NCBI GenBank assembly: GCA_031400935.1
Contig: JANNQV010000027.1
Span: 62,001 to 126,000 of the forward strand
Reading direction: 5' to 3'
DNA: 64,000 bases
DNA from: Armatimonadota bacterium
Lineage (GTDB): Bacteria > Armatimonadota > Fimbriimonadia > Fimbriimonadales > Fimbriimonadaceae
Below, piece after piece: positions 10,890 to 48,302 of the stretch. Each line of letters starts with the position of its first letter. The first letter of the stretch is position 1. The translations under genes and the position numbers were made by a program. Below the pieces are notes generated by a model. That model saw nothing but the letters and a program-made list of their open reading frames with translations, did not search any database and was not told the DNA's origin.

Positions 10890-11788
10890 GAATGCCCTTC
10901 CCCTCTAAGCATTGCTTGGGCGTGCAGCAGCCCTGGGAAGAGCGCGACCAAAGCATCTTCACACGCCGCTGGCGAACCGGGAATGGCCAAAACGATGGTG
11001 GAACCAATGATTCCTGCAACTGACCGGCTAAAGTGCGCCGTCGGAATTCGGTCTTGGCCGTACCTTCTCAGAGTTTCGGAAATTCCTGGAAGTTCAAGGT
11101 CAAAAAGAGGAGAGATTGCTTCAGGAGTTCGGTCGCGAGGGCTAATTCCCGTGCCACCAGTTACGAGCACGATGTTCGTAGCCGCACTGACCAATTCTTG
11201 AACAGCCTTTTGAATCTGATCATGGTCGTCACCTACCACCGTTTTTGCTACCGATGCGGCCCCGAGACTTTCAAGACCGACCTTGAGAATCCCTCCTGAT
11301 TTGTCTTCAAAAGTCCCTGCCGAAACTCGGTCAGAAACCACGATTACCCCAGCGGTCCATCCGGAATCAGAAACAAAATCGCTTTTGCCACCCCGCTTTT
11401 CGATGAGTCGAATTCCGACAATTTCCATGTCGTCATCAAACATCTTCAGCATGTCGTATAGGTTCAAAACGGCAGCAGAAGCCGCAGTTAGGGCTTCCAT
11501 TTCGACACCCGTTTTTGCAACGCTGACAACTTCGACCGTTACAATAATTCGGTCGGATTGAAGCTCGAATTTTACGTCCACGAATTCAATTGGAATTGGG
11601 TGGCAATAGGGAATCCAATCGGTCGTTCTCTTTGCTGCCATGACCGCTGCAACCTTTGAAACAGGAAGTGGATCGCCCTTTGGAACCGTACCATCCCGAA
11701 TCGCAGTTAGCGTCGCAGGAGAGGCCGTAAGCTCGGCGCGGGCAATGGCAGATCGCCGAGTTGTGACCTTATGAGAGACATTTCTCAA
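10886..11788 (-). CDS. moaCB: Bifunctional MoaC / MogA-MoaB fusion
   Basis: N-terminal KGD...AAKRT..IPYCHPI, KTGVEMEAL, YDMLK. C-terminal VSDR...DKSG, TGGTGISPRDRTPEA, PGSP. TTG start overlaps the moaA stop. Confidence 0.92.
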   Translation of the reverse strand: MRNVSHKVTTRRSAIARAELTASPATLTAIRDGTVPKGDPLPVSKVAAVMAAKRTTDWIPYCHPIPIEFVDVKFELQSDRIIVTVEVVSVAKTGVEMEALTAASAAVLNLYDMLKMFDDDMEIVGIRLIEKRGGKSDFVSDSGWTAGVIVVSDRVSAGTFEDKSGGILKVGLESLGAASVAKTVVGDDHDQIQKAVQELVSAATNIVLVTGGTGISPRDRTPEAISPLFDLELPGISETLRRYGQDRIPTAHFSRSVAGIIGSTIVLAIPGSPAACEDALVALFPGLLHAQAMLRGEGHS

Positions 11789-12792
11789 CCGCCGATCTCC
11801 ACCATGGCAAGTGTATCCAGCTGCCGCCACGTATTCATTGGGGGATGCCCGGCCCATTTGGTAAATAGATCGGTGCGAATCGTTCGCGCCAATTCATCAT
11901 CAGAAGAGCCGTCTCTCATCATGTCACGAAGGCTCGATTTCGGCGGAAGGAATAGGCAAGTTTTCAATTGGCCGTCGGAAGTTAGGCGAATTCTGTTGCA
12001 ACCATCGCAAAAGGAATCTGTGACGCTGGTAACAAACCCGACTTTGCCTTGAAAGCCATCTATTCTGAAATCTTTCGCGACGTCTGTTGGTTGCCCCTCC
12101 AATGGAATCAATTTGTATTTAGTTTCAATGATGTTTCGCATTTCAAGGTAGCTAATGACCCGATCTGCCTTCCATTCATTACCCAAAAATGGCATGAATT
12201 CGATAAAACGAACTTGGATTGGCTTGTCTTCGACAAATTCCACGAAGTCCAGAATTTCGTCGTCGTTCACACCGCTCAATGCGACCACGTTCAACTTTAT
12301 TGAATCGAATCCGGCATTGATCGCAGACTTTATTCCTGCCAAAACGCGATCAAATTCGTCCCTTCTCGTGATCTGCTCGAAACGATCTTTCCGAAGCGTG
12401 TCGAGGCTGATATTGATGCCAGTCAGTCCATTTTGCTTGAGTTTTTCAGCATGAAGCGAAAGTGAGCTTCCATTGGTTGTCATCAGGATTCTCTCGATGC
12501 CGGGAATGCTTTTCAAGGTTCCAATTAGCTCTACATATCCCTTGCGAACTGTCGGCTCGCCTCCAGTCAATCGAATCTTGTTAGTGCCGAGCCGGGCGAA
12601 AACACGGGCAAGCCGTTCAATCTCTTCGAGCGACAAGATTTGAGATCTTTCTTGCCATTTCACTCCATCTTCCGGCATGCAATAGACGCACCTGAAATTG
12701 CATCGGTCGGTCAGCGAAATGCGAAGGTAATCGTGCTTTCGCCCGAATCTGTCGATCAATGGCTCCCATGAAGAATGGGAAAGGTCTGTCAT
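11785..12792 (-). CDS. moaA: GTP 3',8-cyclase (radical SAM)
   Basis: LRISLTDRCNFRCVYCMP, RLTGGEP, CDGCNRIRLT.DG.LKTC, C-terminal IGG. Confidence 0.97.
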   Translation of the reverse strand: MTDLSHSSWEPLIDRFGRKHDYLRISLTDRCNFRCVYCMPEDGVKWQERSQILSLEEIERLARVFARLGTNKIRLTGGEPTVRKGYVELIGTLKSIPGIERILMTTNGSSLSLHAEKLKQNGLTGINISLDTLRKDRFEQITRRDEFDRVLAGIKSAINAGFDSIKLNVVALSGVNDDEILDFVEFVEDKPIQVRFIEFMPFLGNEWKADRVISYLEMRNIIETKYKLIPLEGQPTDVAKDFRIDGFQGKVGFVTSVTDSFCDGCNRIRLTSDGQLKTCLFLPPKSSLRDMMRDGSSDDELARTIRTDLFTKWAGHPPMNTWRQLDTLAMVEIGG

Positions 12793-39764: not shown

Positions 39765-39841
39765 TGGTCGGGGCGACAGGATTTGAACCTGCGACCTCCT
39801 GCACCCCATGCAGGCGCGCTACCAAGCTGCGCCACGCCCCG
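39765..39841 (-). tRNA. tRNA-Pro(GGG)
   Basis: Reverse complement CGGGGCGTGGCGCAGCTTGGTAGCGCGCCTGCAT-GGG-GTGCAGGAGGTCGCAGGTTCAAATCCTGTCGCCCCGACCA. Confidence 0.97.
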
Positions 39842-39948: not shown

Positions 39949-40653
39949 TTATTCTTCCCTTGTCCGGGTCGTTAGCCGTTCGATCCTCTTCTCAAAGTTT
40001 GCACCTTGGATCAATCGGTTCACATAGATACTCGGCGTGTGGATGCAATCGGGGTCAAGTTCGCCCAGCGGAACGATTTTTTCAACCTCTGCCACACAAA
40101 CTTTGCCAGCCGTTGCCATCATCGGGTTAAAGTTTCTAGCAGTTCTCCGGTAAATCAGATTGCCAGTTTCGTCGGCTTTCCAAGCCTTAACGATACTTAG
40201 GTCTGCTACAAGTGCAGATTCCATCACGTACCACTCGCCATCAAATTGGCGAGTTTCTTTTCCTTCGGCAATCATGGTCCCATATCCCGTTTTTGTAAAG
40301 AAAGCTGGAATTCCTGCACCGCCCGCTCGAATTCTCTCGGCAAGTGTTCCTTGGGGATTGAATTCCAATTCAAGTTCCCCGCCAAGATACTGCCGCTCGA
40401 ATTCTGCGTTTTCACCAACATACGAAGAGACCATTTTCTTAATCTGCCGAGTTTGCAAAAGCGGCCCCATTCCAAAATCATCAACCCCGCAATTGTTGCT
40501 TATGACAGTGATATTTGTAACTCCTGAGTCGCGAAGGGCATAAATCAGGTGCTCAGGAATACCGCAGAGCCCAAACCCTCCCGACATGATCGTCATACCG
40601 TCAAAAAGCAAACCATCAAGAGCCGACTTCGCATCCGAATAAACCTTGTTCAT
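39949..40653 (-). CDS. scoA: 3-oxoacid CoA-transferase subunit A
   Basis: [49 protein letters not shown]. Confidence 0.93.
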
Positions 40654-40855: not shown

Positions 40856-40894
40856 CTTTATCTTGTCTTAATTCTTCGATAATGGCTTCTTAAT
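40856..40894 (+). promoter_or_regulatory. Pho-box-like 11-bp periodic array upstream of the pilin-like gene
   Basis: CTTTAT (40856), CTTAAT (40867), GATAAT (40878), CTTAAT (40889). Confidence 0.5.
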
Positions 40895-40930
40895 CTCAAA
40901 GCCTCAAATTGAGTCGTTACCGGAGGATTA

Positions 40931-41902
40931 ATGTTAAAACGAGCTTTCACACTCATCGAACTTCTAGTCGTCATTGCGATCATTGCGATCCTTGCCGCCA
41001 TCCTTTTCCCTGTTTTTGCCCAAGCAAAAGAGGCTGCCAAGAAGACAGCTTGCTTGAGCAATTCCAAGCAGCTCGGCCTTGCGCTCATGCAATACAACGC
41101 CGACTTTGATGACATGAATCCGATGGCCTATTACTATAAGAACAACACGGCCACGGCCAACGGAGGCTCCGCCGGTGGGTACGTAACCTGGACAGTTCTG
41201 TTCCAGCCGTACATCAAGAACTCCGACATGTTCGTCTGCCCGTCGGATCGAAACAAGGGCCTTCCCCCAGATAACGCACCGTGCAACCCGTTCACCGACA
41301 CGTCGACGCTGGGCTGCGAAGCGCAGGTTCCTCGGCTGTCCTACATCCCCAACTCGGCGATCATGCCCCGCAAGCGCGGCCCCTCAGATGCCCCGAACAC
41401 GATCTCCGCAACCGTTCTCGATGCGCCCGCCGACACGATCGCTTTGGCGGAAATGACCAACCACCAGAACTGCATCTTCTTGGCTTCCACGGGCCAAGGC
41501 AACCCCGAGCGACGCAACAAATCCCACCGACCCGTCAATGCGATCATGCGAAACGTGACGGGCGGGCAATGGGCGGGCCAGAGCGTCGCCGATGCGACCG
41601 GACCGATCTACGCGATCACCAAGGCCGCGGCCGAAGGCCCCGATGGCTGGGGCGGTCCGTCCGATTCGGGCAGTGTCACAAACACCGCTGGATGCCGCGG
41701 CACCGCAGCCGACAGCGGCTTTCACATCCGGTTCATGGAACCCGCGCGACACTCGGGCGGCTCCAACTACACGTTCTCGGACGGCCACTCAAAGTACAAC
41801 AAGTTCGACGCCACGATCAATCCGAACAAGTTCCTCTGGGGCACGACTTACTACCCCACGGGCCAAGTGGTCCTCGACCAAAACGGTATCCAGGTTCGCT
41901 AA
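40931..41902 (+). CDS. Prepilin-type N-terminal cleavage/methylation protein with DUF1559-like region and H-X9-DG motif
   Basis: [69 protein letters not shown]. Confidence 0.92.
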
Positions 41903-41920
41903 CGGACTAAACGTTGATGC

Positions 41921-41960
41921 CCCCTCCTTCGGCCATCATGCTGAAGGAGGGCCCTTTTTC
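41921..41960 (+). terminator. Intrinsic terminator
   Basis: CCCTCCTTCGGC-catcat-GCTGAAGGAGGG followed by TTTTT. Confidence 0.75.
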
Positions 41961-42446
41961 TTCTCTTCGATTTATGTCCAGCAGGGTCAGGCTCATTTGC
42001 AGCCGTCTGGTGATGATTCTTGTTTGGTCCGACGCCACCGCATCATGATGTTGACAGTTGGAGTACACATCTTTGCTCTCACAAGACGGTTGCCGCGGCC
42101 AAGCAATCTGGCAATTCTCCCCGTAGGTTGAGTTGTCGAGGCTCGGCTCAACCACTAATCATCGTATAGCCGGCGGTTCGCATCTTTCGGAGCCCTCAAC
42201 TCTACAAGATAGCCTATTGCATTCCCAGCATTGCGCCGTCACTACTGTTAGATCAACTGCACGTTGATCCCCTGGTTAAGGGAAAGGTTAGCGATGCTAG
42301 CTCAAGCTTCAATCGCACCCAGAACTTCAATGATCCGATCTTCCAAGTACTTCTTTCCTGTTGTCAATTCTGTCTGCCATTTTGGAGCCTTAACCCATGT
42401 TCTTAGGGTGGAGAGATTATTGGGAACCTGTTAACAACTGATCAGA

Positions 42447-42485
42447 CTTAACGAATCCTTAACTAGCAAATAATCAGTTCTTAAC
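42447..42485 (+). promoter_or_regulatory. Pho-box-like tandem repeats upstream of porin-pstSCAB
   Basis: CTTAAC at 42447, 42458 and 42480, AATAAT at 42469: exact 11-bp spacing. Confidence 0.7.
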
Positions 42486-42549
42486 ATTAGGTCGCCATTA
42501 TCAATTCAGCTTAATGGTGCCGTTAAACGTGATGGTGCAAACAGGATGA

Positions 42550-44028
42550 GTGTTTATGCGTAGATGGATTGACTTAACTGCTGCCGTTTTGGTTGGCCTG
42601 CCTTGTATCGCTTTTGGACAAAATGCAGAAGTTCCTAAGACTCAGCCAGTCCAAGAGCAGACTGCAGTTTCCGCTTCTGGCCAAAAACCGATTGAGCAAA
42701 GCAAGAGACGAGCTACAGAAGCTGAAAAACTTGCAATGCTGAGAAAACTTGATGCTAAGTCAAAGGAAATGGACACCCTGAAGCAGAAGGCAGACGATGT
42801 GACAAAGGCAATGGCCAAGACCGTCGCACAGGGAAATGTCGGAACTACGCAACAGGGTGTTCAGGCACTCCGCGAACTGATTGACCAACTCGACCAAATT
42901 CAAGATGCACTTCAAAAAATCCATGAGGAGATTGAAGGCATCAAAGGTTGGATTGAAGGTCAAAACGAAGCTTTGCCAATTATGGCGAACGATATTTTGG
43001 ACTTGAAGCGAAACAAGTGGGGCAATTACATTCAGTTCCAATATCGAGACACTGATCAATCCGGCGGCGCAAGCGACGCGTTTTCACTTCGAAGAGCTCG
43101 ACTTGGACTTACTCAGCAAATAGACTCGCGAACAGTGTTGCGTGTTAGCTTTGATGTAGCTACTGGCACAACAACAAATACCCCTCAGATGCGCGACGCT
43201 TACGTTCGTTGGGATTTGGAACCATCTCTAGAAAAAGTGGGAACTGAAGTCTTTATGGGCCAATTGCCATTGATGCTTGGCTATGAGCTTGAAAGGTCGT
43301 CTGGTGACCGTGAGTTTCCTGAGCGAACGCTTTACAACAGAACACTCTTTGCCGGAGAAAGAAGTCGAGGGATCAACATCAAGCATGGACTGAGCGACAC
43401 AGCCTTTGTTCATATTGGTGGATGGAATGCTCTGACTTGGGACGACCTAGAGCAAAGGACGGTAGCTCCTGGTCCCGGAAGCCGCCTCGCTATGTCAGGT
43501 GGCGCTCGAACATATGGTACGAACTGGGAACTTGGCATTTCGGGATTCTTTGGCGAACGTCCTTCTGTTTCAACAACGAGAGTAGTCAGCAGCGTAACGG
43601 AAACGATCGTTCACCCTGCAGTAGATCGAGAGATAATTTACGTTGATGGAACGTACGTGGGATTGATTGATCCAAAGCTCTTTGTCAAGTTTGAACTGAT
43701 GACTGGAAAGGATCGGATTCCCATCGCTCCTGGCTTGAATCAGAGTATTTCAGCTCCGCGAGGCAGGGTCAATGTTTCAGGCAACCAAGTTCATTTGGGT
43801 TACAACATCAACAATCGGAACCAGATAAATGTTCGAAGAGAGGAGTGGGATCCAAATACAGATGTTGATGGAAATGTTGTAAATACGTGGGCAGCAGCTT
43901 ATTCGTATTTCATCAATCCTAATGCCCGAGTTACAGCTTCTCATGAATGGATCACAGACCCTTCTCGAGCAGGCATTGGCCAAATCAAATACAACATCAC
44001 AACTTTGCGAGTGATCTTCAAGTTTTAA
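42550..44028 (+). CDS. Phosphate-selective porin-like (OprO/P-like) outer-membrane protein with N-terminal coiled coil
   Basis: GNYIQFQY...FSLRRARLG...MRDAYV...GQLPLMLGYE..RSS....FPER; C-terminal Phe; first gene of pst operon. Confidence 0.75.
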   Translation: MFMRRWIDLTAAVLVGLPCIAFGQNAEVPKTQPVQEQTAVSASGQKPIEQSKRRATEAEKLAMLRKLDAKSKEMDTLKQKADDVTKAMAKTVAQGNVGTTQQGVQALRELIDQLDQIQDALQKIHEEIEGIKGWIEGQNEALPIMANDILDLKRNKWGNYIQFQYRDTDQSGGASDAFSLRRARLGLTQQIDSRTVLRVSFDVATGTTTNTPQMRDAYVRWDLEPSLEKVGTEVFMGQLPLMLGYELERSSGDREFPERTLYNRTLFAGERSRGINIKHGLSDTAFVHIGGWNALTWDDLEQRTVAPGPGSRLAMSGGARTYGTNWELGISGFFGERPSVSTTRVVSSVTETIVHPAVDREIIYVDGTYVGLIDPKLFVKFELMTGKDRIPIAPGLNQSISAPRGRVNVSGNQVHLGYNINNRNQINVRREEWDPNTDVDGNVVNTWAAAYSYFINPNARVTASHEWITDPSRAGIGQIKYNITTLRVIFKF

Positions 44029-44050
44029 GTTATTTAAAGGAGTACGTGAA

Positions 44051-44884
44051 ATGAAATTGAATACAAAACTAATATTGAGTGCGCTTGGAGTGCTTGTGAT
44101 TTCAGCTGGAGTTCTTGCTTATCAACGCCAAGTTTCAGTGAAAGGTTCAGATACTCTTTTAGTCCTAAACCAAGCTTGGGCAGAGGCATTTGGCAAAAAA
44201 GGTGGCTCGATTGCTGTGTCAGGCGGTGGATCTTCAATAGGGATAAACGCATTTATCAATGGCGTTACCGATATCTGTGCAAGTTCGAGAAAGATTCGAA
44301 AGAGCGAAATTGACAGAGCCAGAAGTAGGGGTTCACTCGTGAACGAGATTCCTGTTGCATTAGACGGACTAGCGATCATTGTGAACTCGAGTAACAGTAT
44401 TGAGTCGCTGACTATGGATGATCTGCGAAAAATCTACGTTGGTCAGTTCACGAATTGGAAGCAAGTGGGCGGTTCCGATATGCCAATCGTTCCATTCAGT
44501 CGAGACTCAAACTCCGGAACGTACGGCTTTTTCCAAGAGAATGTGCTTAAGAACCAAAACTGGGGCGCAAGCGTTCGGTTTATGCCTTCGACAAGTGAGG
44601 AGGCCAGAGAGGTCGCACGAACAGGAGGCGGTATTGCATACGGTGGTGTTGCTTACTTCAAAGGCAAGGGAATCAGAATAGTTCCAGTTGCCAAAGCCAA
44701 CGGACAGCCTGCAATTTCTCCTAGCGAAGCAAATGTTCGCAATCGCAGCTATCCAATTTGGAGATTCTTGTACTACTACACAAACGGCAAACCATCGGGC
44801 GAATCAAAGAAATTCATAGACTTTGCTCTCAGCGCAGAAGGACAAGCTATCGTTGAAAAAGTTGGTTACTATTCAGTCAAATAA
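44051..44884 (+). CDS. pstS: Phosphate-binding protein
   Basis: KGSDT, GGGSSIGI, ASSR, VALDGLAIIVN, SRDSNSGTYGFF, YPIWRFLYYY. Confidence 0.95.
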   Translation: MKLNTKLILSALGVLVISAGVLAYQRQVSVKGSDTLLVLNQAWAEAFGKKGGSIAVSGGGSSIGINAFINGVTDICASSRKIRKSEIDRARSRGSLVNEIPVALDGLAIIVNSSNSIESLTMDDLRKIYVGQFTNWKQVGGSDMPIVPFSRDSNSGTYGFFQENVLKNQNWGASVRFMPSTSEEAREVARTGGGIAYGGVAYFKGKGIRIVPVAKANGQPAISPSEANVRNRSYPIWRFLYYYTNGKPSGESKKFIDFALSAEGQAIVEKVGYYSVK

Positions 44885-44959
44885 GTACGAATTGACGCGC
44901 CATAGCTCCCCCATAGGATGTGGGGGAGTGTTTGGTATGTGAGATCCGACGCCCTGCGA

Positions 44960-46441
44960 ATGAGAAAGTTAAGACTACTAGATCGCGGAATGGAAGCTCT
45001 TGTTTATATAGCAGGAGCCCTTATCGTGCTTGTTGTTGCAGCTATTTTCTACTATTTGGTTCACGAATCTCGGCCAGCATTTGACAGAAAGTTCACATAC
45101 GGATTTCTATTTGCACTGCAGCCTTCAGAGGGCGAGTTCGAAAAGGATTTGTCCTACGATCCAAATGCTTCGATACTCACCTGCAATTGGGAAGGTGATG
45201 ATGCACTTGATTCAAAGGAAGAGGGGCTTCCATTAGGAACTCTTGACTCATTTAAGGGCATTTCATCGCTTGTAACGGTTGCTGCAAATGGTGGCTCGAA
45301 TGGGAGTCAGGCCGCAGGCAATCTGTACCGAGACGAGTGGAAAGGCCCCCAGAAAGCTGAAACTGCACACGATTTTGTTCTCTACGCATTCGCGACACCC
45401 GAATACAAATCCAAAACAATGTTCTTGGCTTGGGATGTTCACACTGGCTCAAATCCGTCCGCCTTGCCATACAATCTAAAATTGGAACTTGTCGGCAAAC
45501 CAGCCGGTGCCGATCTAGATTTTGCAAGTATTGATTTAAAATTAAATCCTAAGGGCAGAATCAAGATTCCCACCTTTATTGCAGCTACGGAATCTGATCG
45601 AATAAAGGGCTACCGATTTCGTATATCGGCAAAATCGGTTTCTGGAACCCTTGCCGCAACTCTGAGAAACTTCTTTTCAACCGTTTGGGGGCCGACTATT
45701 GCCCACCCAAGCTACGGCATGATTCCACTGTTGCTAAGCACGATGTTGATCACATTTGTTGCCGTTGCTCTTGCCTCGCCAATTGCCATTGCTTCCGCTG
45801 TCTATTTGGCGGAAATTGCACCCACCAGATTGAGAGAAATTTTGAAGCCATTGATCGAAATGCTTGCAAGTGTTCCAACTATAGTGTTAGGTTATTTCGG
45901 TTTGATGCTTTTGGCGCCAATTGTTCAAAAGACAATCGCCCAGCCTTTGGGATTAGATTCTGGAAGGTGCCTCTTGACGGCAGCACTGATTATGGCAGTG
46001 CTGATAATTCCAACAATACTTACGCTTTCTGAAGACGCACTTCGATCCGTTCCAGATTACATGAGAAGTGGTGGTGAGGCGCTAGGGCTTACTCGAAAGG
46101 AAACCCTTCGAAAGGTGATCTTGCCAGCAGCAAAGGCTGGAATCATCTCCGCAATCATGTTGGGGGTCGCACGTGCACTGGGTGAGACAATGATCGTATG
46201 GGTCTTAAGTGGCGGCACACCCAAAATGCCGATTGCTTCAAGCCTAACAGAAGCTGCAAAGTCAATGGTACAGCCGACTCGAGGAATCCCCGACACGATT
46301 GGAATCGAGATGGGGAACGTCACATTTGGCGAACAGCATTACGGCCATCTGTTTTTGCTGGGGTTAGTTTTGTTTGTACTTACACTATTACTCAATTTGA
46401 CGGCTTTTAAGTTTGCTAGGAGGCACGAATGGCGTCACTAG
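44960..46441 (+). CDS. pstC: Phosphate ABC permease with large extracytoplasmic insert
   Basis: YG.IPLL..T, AVYLAEIAP, KPLIEMLASVPTIVLG, SEDALRSVP, GVARALGETMIV. Confidence 0.93.
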   Translation: MRKLRLLDRGMEALVYIAGALIVLVVAAIFYYLVHESRPAFDRKFTYGFLFALQPSEGEFEKDLSYDPNASILTCNWEGDDALDSKEEGLPLGTLDSFKGISSLVTVAANGGSNGSQAAGNLYRDEWKGPQKAETAHDFVLYAFATPEYKSKTMFLAWDVHTGSNPSALPYNLKLELVGKPAGADLDFASIDLKLNPKGRIKIPTFIAATESDRIKGYRFRISAKSVSGTLAATLRNFFSTVWGPTIAHPSYGMIPLLLSTMLITFVAVALASPIAIASAVYLAEIAPTRLREILKPLIEMLASVPTIVLGYFGLMLLAPIVQKTIAQPLGLDSGRCLLTAALIMAVLIIPTILTLSEDALRSVPDYMRSGGEALGLTRKETLRKVILPAAKAGIISAIMLGVARALGETMIVWVLSGGTPKMPIASSLTEAAKSMVQPTRGIPDTIGIEMGNVTFGEQHYGHLFLLGLVLFVLTLLLNLTAFKFARRHEWRH

Positions 46442-47346
46442 CCAAAATTGTAATTCCTAATGAAAAGGCACTAACTACACGAGATAATTCTCGTGAAAGC
46501 AGAAGCCGCATCAGTAGCTATTCATTGGCACTCGTTACGTTTTTGACGGCATTGCTGATAGTGGGAATCATAGGAACTATTGTTTGGAAAGGGGCTCCAT
46601 CCTTGACCTGGGAGTTTCTTTCGCAATCACCGAAGGCAAACATGAGTGCAGGTGGAATATGGCCAATGATTCGTGGTTCGTTGCTGTTGATGGGTGGTAC
46701 ATTGCTCGCTGTGTTGCCAGCAGGAATTCTTGGTGGCATTTTCCTTGCCGAATATGCAGGTCGCGGACGCCTTGCTCGACTCATGCATGCATGCGTGACT
46801 AGTCTGGCGGGCACGCCTTCGATTGTCTTTGGCTTGTTTGGATTGGCCGTATTTGTGCTGCTTCTGAAATGGAAGTTTTGCCTCTTGGCAGGATGGCTCA
46901 CGCTAGCTGTATTTTCCCTACCTACTGTTGTGTTGACTACAGAAACAGCAATTCGATCAGTTCCAGATTCATTGATTGAGGGTGCTTTGAGCTTAGGGCT
47001 TTCTAAATGGCAGACCATGTGGAAAGTAGTACTCCCAAATGCTATGCCAGGAATTCTCTCTGGACTAATTCTAACCACTGGACGGGCTGCCGGAGAAGCC
47101 CCACCAATCCTGTTGACCGCGGGAATCTATTACTCTACATCGAAATTCGAACTGAATAGCGGGATGCTATTCCAGCCGATTGAAAACCTGCCTTATCACC
47201 TGGCAGAGGGGTATCGGCAAGGCGGTGTAATTCCAGACCGAATTGTTTGGGGAACCTGCCTTTCACTTATGCTTTTTGTCTTGCTCCTGAATATAGGAGC
47301 AGTAATCTTTAGATCGAGGATGCGATGGAAACAACTGCAACATTAG
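46429..47346 (+). CDS. pstA: Phosphate ABC permease
   Basis: [47 protein letters not shown]. Confidence 0.94.
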
Positions 47347-48137
47347 AAGGATCAATCAGTGAGACTCATATGAGCGCCAAAATGCCAATTGTTCATGTCC
47401 GGCAACTTTCGGTTTCGTATGGCGGTGTAAAAGCTCTAAAGGAAATCAGTATAGATATTCCTAAGAACGCCGTGACCAGCCTCATTGGACCGTCGGGCTG
47501 CGGGAAATCCACGTTTTTGCGGACTCTGAACCGAATGAACGACCGAATTACCGGATTTCGATGCGATGGTACAGTGGAAGTCGCTGGTGTGAATGTGTAC
47601 GCCAAAAAGGTGGACATGCTATCACTGAGAAGACGGGTCGGCATGGTTTTCCAAAAAGCAAATCCTTTTCCAATGTCGGTTTATGAAAATGTAGCAATTG
47701 GCCCGAAAATGCACTATGGAACAAAGGGAGCAGAATTGGACCAGATCGTTGAGGATTCTCTTCGGGCGGCAGCCATTTGGAATGAAGTCAAGGACGATTA
47801 CAAAAGGAAGTCGGGACTATCACTCTCCGGTGGGCAACAGCAGCGCCTTTGCATTGCCAGAATGCTGGCTGTTCGTCCTGAAGTGATCCTGATGGATGAG
47901 CCGTGTTCAGCACTAGATCCAGTTTCAACAGCGAAAATTGAGGACCTTGTCATCGAACTAAAGGCAGATCATACAGTCGTCATCGTTACGCACAACCTGC
48001 AGCAAGCTGAGAGGATTTCCGACCAAACTGCCTTTTTCATGTTCGGCGAGCTAGTGGAATATGCCAAGAGCGACATCCTTTTCAATGATGCAGCTCGGCG
48101 TGAAACGCAAGATTACGTTTCTGGAAGATTCGGATAA
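47325..48137 (+). CDS. pstB: Phosphate ABC ATPase
   Basis: [61 protein letters not shown]. Confidence 0.97.
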
Positions 48138-48251
48138 TTCCAACGACCAGAAGCTATCTTGAATCTAAACGGATGGCAATGGGGAAAGCAAGCCTACACA
48201 GCTGGTGGTGGAGCAAACTACAAACCAGGCACGACAATCAACGTGGAATAA
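48138..48251 (+). pseudogene. C-terminal remnant of a prepilin/H-X9-DG family gene
   Basis: FQRPEAILNLNGWQWGKQAYTAGGGANYKPGTTINVE* aligns with the end of the 40931 protein ([20 protein letters not shown]...). Confidence 0.55.
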
Positions 48252-48272
48252 TTTCACTTGGGTTAGAACCTT

Positions 48273-48302
48273 TGGAACCGGCACTGCCGGTTCCATTTTT
48301 TT
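48273..48302 (+). terminator. Intrinsic terminator of the pst operon
   Basis: TGGAACCGGC-act-GCCGGTTCCA-TTTTTTT. Confidence 0.85.

Follow-up and report, generated by a model that had tools for sequence, protein, structure and literature searches.

The stretch of DNA analysed here (the window) spans 64,000 nucleotides of an Armatimonadota genome of the family Fimbriimonadaceae (genome G000, contig C27, positions 62001-126000) and carries, beside a porin-pstSCAB operon for phosphate uptake, a gene for a prepilin-type protein of the DUF1559/H-X9-DG family. Membership of this pilin-like gene in the Pho regulon, as a sequence-only reading of the window had proposed, is very likely, and the rank of its promoter box, together with the presence of that box across its clade, extends the proposal to the clade as a whole. 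The gene shares a promoter signal with the adjacent phosphate-uptake genes, as do most of its relatives, and phosphate starvation is therefore likely to induce it. In Planctomycetes, Armatimonadota and their relatives, the DUF1559 pilin-like proteins rank among the most strongly expanded families that lack an assigned function; a conserved regulator site that links defined clades of them to one nutrient offers candidate binding residues, a condition and a class of ligand.

Promoter arrays and their candidate regulator

The signal consists of one array of short direct repeats in front of each transcription unit, shown here with the pilin-like gene:

40856..40894, + strand: Pho-box-type array 1, four units with an 11-bp period, ending 36 nt 5' of the pilin start
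40931..41902, + strand: DUF1559/H-X9-DG prepilin-type gene of clade A, 323 aa, with N_methyl and DUF1559 domains
41330..41533, + strand: a portion of the head insert; its arginine-rich motifs PRLSY, MPRKR and KSHRP are conserved in the clade and give candidate anion-binding residues
42447..42485, + strand: Pho-box-type array 2, four units with an 11-bp period, preceding the porin-pst operon

In 11-bp register, array 1 reads CTTTAT (40856), CTTAAT (40867), GATAAT (40878) and CTTAAT (40889), and array 2 reads CTTAAC (42447), CTTAAC (42458), AATAAT (42469) and CTTAAC (42480). The earlier description of four CTTAAY-like hexamers at 11-bp spacing before both pilin and porin is a fair one: five of the eight units are exact, unit 3 of either array has two mismatches and the unit at 40856 has one. 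Comparison of array 1 with the sister species G001 shows that the hexamers are retained and the spacers have diverged.

Across both strands of the 2.97-Mb genome (48.7% GC), the two arrays are the sole four-unit arrays with at most four mismatches to CTTAAY, a count that is post hoc because the motif was derived from those same two arrays. Non-circular tests used matrices trained on sites that exclude the pilin array. When training was restricted to the porin array, the pilin array was the third site genome-wide; the sites next to the porin array in rank lay before a second DUF1559 pilin (C28:99026-99928), the window pilin and a Phytase-like esterase gene, and a second pstS-C-A operon was also recovered. 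A matrix built from the non-pilin sites of the same genome placed the two pilins second and third of 2822 upstream regions; high scores of 21.9 and 21.5 bits set them apart from the other prepilin genes (27 in all), the best of which reached 8.4. With a matrix drawn from the pst promoters of 15 relatives, the order among 2777 upstream regions was porin-pst, pilin 2, window pilin and pstS2; over all genome positions the same matrix returned array 2 as the best four-unit site and array 1 as the fourth distinct one. The motif thus scored precedes 15 related porin-pst or pstS genes, and its consensus unit is CCTTAAC with an 11-bp period. No comparable array was found at periods of 8-10, 12 or 13 bp in the genome scan trained on the porin array. 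A 14-bp-period control gave one site of 33 bits (G000 C61:19474, minus strand), probably a short tandem repeat.

The sequence-only reading had named a genome-wide motif scan among its checks, and the scan finds the array type to be rare and to lie ahead of phosphate-acquisition genes. The top sites precede porin-pst, pstS2, the Phytase-like gene and the two pilins, and weaker two-unit sites lie upstream of phoU and of the OmpR-family regulator operon. Some sites of 15-20 bits fall in coding DNA or before genes without an evident phosphorus role, and the score threshold is therefore not clean in that range. One box-like site of 16.7 bits (G000 C28:179554; L006) lies between divergent genes of unassigned function, one of which encodes a 162-aa membrane protein.

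Two full OmpR-family regulators are encoded in the genome. The candidate reader of the motif is an orphan (G000 C28:105739-106440) that scores 236 bits on TIGR02154, with a cut-off of 296, and the PhoR profile TIGR02966, with a cut-off of 334, gives 244 and 277 bits for two orphan kinases. We infer that this orphan regulator is the PhoB/SphR equivalent. Its ortholog is present in 57 of 61 genomes, and 23 of 30 loci have a two-unit box of at least 14 bits in the 1.5 kb upstream (a count without a shuffled control for that interval), mostly just ahead of the first gene of the operon. In G000 that boxed first gene of the PhoB-like operon (C28:106478-107608; L001:16479-17609) encodes a 376-aa protein without a Pfam or NCBIfam match, and the protein adjoins the regulator in 27 of the 30 loci. 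In genome G097 the regulator ortholog is part of a pstS2-C-A-B-regulator-kinase run that is divergent from a clade A homologue of the window pilin. On this evidence it is very likely that the motif is a Pho box and that the orphan regulator reads it, and the interpretation of the arrays as PhoB/SphR-type 11-bp direct repeats holds up well, the motif being rare, conserved, of Pho-box type and built from a unit that resembles the SphR consensus. The lineage thereby gains a probable Pho box and a probable regulator for it.

Box distribution and gene neighbourhoods

In a quick tree, homologues of the two boxed pilins fall into two clades, A (with the window pilin) and B. Boxes were scored in the 250 nt upstream on both strands, with G000 and G001 among the rows; genes shorter than 200 aa or with less than 200 nt upstream were excluded, and L066, L070 and L092 gave no row. 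A box of at least 15 bits precedes 20 of 29 clade A genes, 11 of 24 clade B genes and 5 of 98 other DUF1559 pilins, and wrong periods (9, 10, 12 and 13) gave no site of at least 15 bits on the forward strand of 151 homologue promoters. Held-out clade A genes that were fetched later are boxed in 10 of 11 cases, a count that leaves aside two further paralogues from the same loci, one scoring 14.2 bits and the other having 66 nt upstream. Four of the five boxed "other" pilins belong to a third clade and the fifth shares its spacer with a clade B gene; four other clades, of 25, 13, 8 and 6 sequences, contain no boxed gene. The genes of the boxed clades occupy unrelated neighbourhoods. A profile of the clade A head has matches in 108 of 175 genomes of the family, with at most 15 candidates scored per genome. 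A GTDB-wide scan by shared N-terminal words returned mostly other DUF1559 genes and was not used.

Several other DUF1559 pilins deserve mention. G000 C22:41730-42728 and its orthologues (L121-L150) form a near-universal pilin clade, found in 51 of 61 genomes, with many conserved basic residues. The orthologues carry a box of three units in 4 of 30 cases and of two units in 10 of 30, with none in G000 or G001; the clade is partly boxed and therefore not a clean negative control, and it is a probable third phosphate-linked clade. The clade B pilin of G000 (C28:99026-99928; L001:9027-9929) is convergent with a gene for an 888-aa phosphoesterase; its identity to G001 is 94-100% over the 5' part and 78-87% over the 3' part, which may point to a mosaic. 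In many genomes, box-free pilins of two other clades are very often located within the nuo gene set for complex I, with nuoA, C, D, E and F around them (G000 C18:116703-117632, which is L181, and L154, L160-L162, L165, L166, L173, L183, L184, L186, L188-L192, L196 and L197). Another DUF1559 pilin on C28 of G000 (11117-11950) stands directly behind a thiamine pyrophosphate (TPP) riboswitch of 70.7 bits (L112:427-535).

At the locus itself, the pilin-like gene is followed on the same strand by these features:

41922..41961, + strand: intrinsic-terminator-like hairpin of 12 pairs plus a T run, a pattern match directly 3' of the pilin gene
42550..44028, + strand: phosphate-selective porin O/P family protein (PF07396) with a long N-terminal extension; start codon uncertain
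44051..44884, + strand: pstS, above the TIGR02136 cut-off
44918..46441, + strand: pstC, with a long insertion ahead of the permease domain, above the TIGR02138 cut-off over residues 248-502; start codon uncertain
46429..47346, + strand: pstA, above the TIGR00974 cut-off
47325..48137, + strand: pstB, above the TIGR00972 cut-off; start codon uncertain

The gene identities read earlier from the letters (prepilin/H-X9-DG, porin and pstSCAB) are confirmed by profile matches above cut-offs. The pilin scores 29.6 and 34.9 bits on N_methyl and PF07596, both above their cut-offs, and marginally on TIGR04294 (H-X9-DG; 19.8 bits with a cut-off of 19, and 23.4 bits in another search); the porin scores 29.8 bits on PF07396 (cut-off 20.9), and PstS, C, A and B lie in one run, each above its NCBIfam cut-off. 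The span first given, 40856..48302, is right as to its units, and its end is not, since position 48302 reaches into mtnA, outside the unit. PstC has about 200 extra residues ahead of its permease domain and is of similar length in related operons. A second O/P-type porin (G000 C34:52512-53990), 45% identical, is solitary, and no box was seen before it. On the minus strand of the window, upstream of and unrelated to the unit, lie tRNA-Pro(GGG) at 39765-39841 and a CoA-transferase subunit A gene at 39949-40653. In one metatranscriptome, which contained 5% of the sequence words, the stretch was covered by short foreign contigs only.

The pilin and porin-pst genes are connected as a regulon and not as one operon, because a terminator-like hairpin lies behind the pilin and an array of its own precedes the porin. 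The hairpin is nearly identical in G001, and no second copy of the spacer at 41956-42420 was found in the genome. A single conserved pilin-porin-pst operon was considered and rejected: the terminator and a second box lie between the units, and the layout recurs in none of 18 related pst loci. None of those 18 loci has a DUF1559 pilin beside it, and one has unrelated short prepilin genes 5.7 kb off. Among genomes that have both an O/P porin and a clade A pilin, the two lie within 5 kb in 7 of 47 (read from coordinates), in other gene orders: five cases are from genus g26, with porin then pilin, and count as one event; in G062 the pilin is behind porin-pstSCAB, and in G161 the arrangement is divergent. 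With G097, adjacency of the pilin to porin or pst thus recurs in four arrangements other than that of the window. A box of at least 15 bits stands just before the pilin in 6 of these 8 adjacency loci (the seven and G097), and in neither G115 nor G161; in G080 and G082 the box persists in the porin-pilin interval and ahead of both tandem paralogues. The sequence-only reading spoke of a module and proposed pilin-pst synteny as a check, and of this a very likely shared regulon and recurrent proximity stand, while a single operon, a fixed layout and co-occurrence do not. An apparent mutual exclusion of clade A and porin-pstS1 in 36 genomes (2/8 versus 25/28, p 0.001) was lost in 174 genomes (18/31 versus 89/143, p 0.69; with any porin, 47/76 versus 60/98, p 1.0). 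No porin-pst1 operon was seen in G001, an assembly that is 85% complete and whose contigs break at both junctions.

Immediate neighbours with a role in phosphorus scavenging (phytase, phosphoesterases, GDPD, NAGPA and PPK2, by Pfam) occur at 9 of 38 clade A and B loci, divided as 3 of 24 for A and 6 of 14 for B (94 of 97 open reading frames, ORFs, scanned); the 59 control loci had none, with 112 of their 127 ORFs scanned. These enzymes come from six unrelated families and are often convergent with the pilin. An equal-window version of the neighbour test (4/30, 8/25 and 0/89) was replaced by the Pfam comparison; its counts were inflated by self-hits because the queries came from the test loci. 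At one locus (L306; G009:C1:90700-101500) a clade A gene lies between genes for a prepilin peptidase and PilC/GspF, on the opposite strand.

The composition of the window pilin suggests a recent arrival. Its GC content at third codon positions (GC3), 0.75, is the highest of 1868 genome ORFs of at least 200 aa (mean 0.48, standard deviation 0.05), and its first 40 codons are native-like, with a GC3 of 0.475. DNA identity to G001 is 98-100% in the pilin ORF, 47-84% in the promoter and 79-96% in a housekeeping gene elsewhere. We infer that the gene body was recently imported and came to lie behind a Pho-type promoter already present, recombination within the invariant N-terminus being the probable route. 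Pilin-like genes would move as single cassettes, repeatedly placed next to other phosphorus genes.

The pilin-like protein and its possible function

A structural model of the clade A protein from 28 sequences (predicted local distance difference test score 87, predicted template modelling score 0.86) shows a helix at residues 4-54, a sheet that includes the H-X9-DG stretch and a long loop-rich insert; the predicted fold is an N-terminal pilin helix with a pilin-like core, and an insert of about 170 residues as a variable head. In a wide fold search the top 13 rows were pilins or pseudopilins (Z 3.6-4.8). The clade B model behaves alike, with a best Z of 5.1, and no match to the head fold of either clade exceeds that value. 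An apparent likeness of the head to inositol-monophosphatase-type phosphatases was dropped, the rows concerned (Z at most 3.4) being within noise. Metagenomic relatives of the head number 290 representatives at E of at most 0.001, and ESM Atlas matches were to unnamed clusters only.

Class III signal peptides are marked by Gly at -1, Phe1, Glu5 and a hydrophobic helix. Mature Phe1 and Glu5 are invariant in all 28 clade A sequences, and the first 25 residues are nearly so. In the insert, clade A conserves four arginines and a lysine, and clade B conserves four arginines outside the family core; three larger box-free clades have zero or one conserved head arginine. As soft evidence, this suggests an anionic ligand. 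For display of such a protein the genome has a PilD-like peptidase, five PilT/PilU ATPases above cut-off, three secretins, several PilB/GspE-like ATPases below equivalog cut-offs and a GspE/F/G-like cluster on C29. No pil/gsp-type machine genes were found at the window locus (ORF and profile scans).

In the reading we prefer, low phosphate would activate the PhoB/SphR-type regulator, which would bind the CCTTAAC arrays of the pilin and of porin-pstSCAB separately and induce Pst, the porin and hydrolases together with one or two particular heads of pilin type. Processing of the pilin-like protein by PilD and its display by the shared pilus machinery is, on balance, a probable step. The protein would likely become a minor subunit of a retractile type IV pilus, and its arginine-rich head is predicted to catch a phosphorylated solute. 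The head may quite conceivably bind organophosphate or polyphosphate rather than free phosphate, and retraction may carry the ligand to the envelope, where co-regulated phosphatases would release phosphate for the porin and Pst. The pilus machinery is without a Pho box as far as seen, so phosphate starvation would change the head and not the machine. Taken as a whole, a low-phosphate-induced head on a retractile pilus, catching a phosphorylated solute for hydrolysis and Pst uptake, is a serious candidate in which we place slightly less than even confidence; if true, it would be a new mode of nutrient uptake. The TPP riboswitch before another paralogue shifted our view toward nutrient-specific capture and away from adhesion. 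A broader version, which we offer tentatively and regard as doubtful, is that DUF1559/H-X9-DG proteins are swappable substrate-catching heads of a retractile-pilus uptake system, each paralogue being induced by its own nutrient (the phosphate regulon for clades A and B, a thiamine riboswitch for another) and passing from species to species in the form of a single-gene cassette. Such heads would amount to an outer-membrane nutrient import distinct from porins and TonB-dependent transporters.

Several observations weigh against a Pho-regulated capture pilus. The regulator and both kinases fall short of the PhoB and PhoR cut-offs. The structural matches are weak, the best having a Z of 4.8 and a root-mean-square deviation of 4.4 over 99 residues, and Foldseek returned no match at E < 0.001. 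Residue -1 is Ala in 25 of 28 sequences and Gly in 3, not the usual Gly. A six-sequence box-free clade also has many conserved basic residues. The 15-bit mark is missed by 9 of the 29 genes of clade A and by 13 of the 24 of clade B, most clade A genes are without a phosphorus neighbour (3 of 24 have one), and clade A presence is independent of the porin and the pstS1 operon across 174 genomes. The related genomes are, moreover, non-independent samples.

Some of these points bear on alternatives. The alanine at -1 favours a Pho-regulated, membrane-anchored periplasmic binding protein in which the pilin helix is an anchor and no filament forms; this would also fit a head that is large for a pilus core subunit, the repeated adjacency to porin and Pst, and the designation of the PF07596 domain by Pfam as a solute-binding family (PMC2754498). 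However, the conservation of F1, E5 and the first 25 residues goes beyond an anchor's need, the fold searches ranked no solute-binding-protein fold, and Tuwongella proteins with both N_methyl and DUF1559 domains are partly in the sodium dodecyl sulfate-soluble fraction, unlike ordinary binding proteins (PMC8567305), and we regard an anchored protein as unlikely. If the protein is on a pilus, starvation might instead switch the pilus tips to phosphorus-rich surfaces, particles or cells without solute import. An attachment role has been proposed for Fimbriimonas pili (PMC4072686), Pseudomonas responds to low phosphate with adhesive appendages rich in PstS (PMC2242829), and mineral phosphate or anionic polymers could be ligands of an arginine-rich head; the five retraction ATPases, the soluble-substrate hydrolases and transporters among the neighbours, and the thiamine riboswitch on a paralogue, which suits solute capture better, make such an adhesin quite improbable.

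The cluster of GspE/F/G-like genes on C29, together with the phytase directly downstream in 2 clade A loci and the phosphoesterases that flank 6 of 14 clade B loci, would be expected of a pseudopilin adaptor that selects or displays secreted phosphatases via a type II secretion system, in the manner of Hxc. Yet the enzymes encoded nearby come from six families without kinship and their genes often converge on the pilin, no pil/gsp machine gene was recognised among the 20 best-boxed promoters, and most of the pilin-like genes stand alone, so that an adaptor role is decidedly unlikely. It might also be argued that the pilin is not under phosphate control, the repeats being bound by another regulator or the gene hitch-hiking on a neighbour's promoter: the regulator is under the curated PhoB cut-off, and the G097 box between divergent pilin and pstS2 could serve pstS2 alone. 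But the box tracks the clade through dozens of unrelated neighbourhoods, is kept at both positions in G080 and G082, and marks pst, phoU, phytase-like and phoB-like operons, and the chance that phosphate control is absent appears slight. Among these explanations, the low-phosphate-induced capture pilus remains the one that we prefer.

Relation to known systems

The closest parallel to the promoter arrays is the cyanobacterial SphR Pho box, which consists of tandem direct repeats of consensus CTTAACCT with an 11-bp period (Su et al. 2007, PMC1906773). The arrays described here have the same period, with CCTTAAC as the unit in place of CTTAACCT, and as in the SphR regulon the boxes stand before pst genes, phosphatases and the regulator's own operon (PMC1906773). 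Unlike that regulon, the present one is in Armatimonadota, and its arrays occur in either orientation; DUF1559 pilin-like genes are among the strongest sites here and are not mentioned in the accessible part of the SphR study (PMC1906773).

A low-phosphate response that involves pilin-type proteins, and surface structures tied to phosphate capture, have a precedent in the Hxc system and PstS-rich appendages of Pseudomonas aeruginosa (PMC2242829). Hxc differs in being a dedicated machine with its own gene cluster that secretes a phosphatase or binding protein (PMC2242829), whereas here the box stands before a single large gene of pilin type and, as far as seen, before no machine gene, which departs from the Hxc-like pattern. 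The substrate-binding minor pilin ComP (PDB 5hz7) is the top row of the fold search, with a Z of 4.8, and shares the pilin-like core; the match is tied with other pilins, covers the core only and has no phosphate link. Planctomycetes also have dextran-binding fibres, that is, filaments that bind a substrate for uptake; in the accessible part of that report the fibre proteins are unnamed and have no phosphate link (PMC5394234).

In domain layout and in its many scattered paralogues, the window pilin resembles the N_methyl plus SBP_bac_10 family (PF07596, TIGR04294) of Planctomycetes and Fimbriimonas (PMC8567305, PMC2754498, PMC4072686), which comprises 41 or more DUF1559 proteins per Planctomycetales genome (PMC8567305) and, in Fimbriimonas, 79 PulG-like genes (PMC4072686). 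The accessible parts of these three papers give no regulator or nutrient for any DUF1559 subfamily. We found no literature linking the DUF1559 family to phosphate control, in a search whose scope was largely that of papers outside subscription and without the supplementary transcriptome tables of PMC2754498 and PMC8567305. What sets the present pilins apart from the described DUF1559 families is that two clades, and perhaps three, carry a phosphate-regulon box together with phosphorus-related neighbours.

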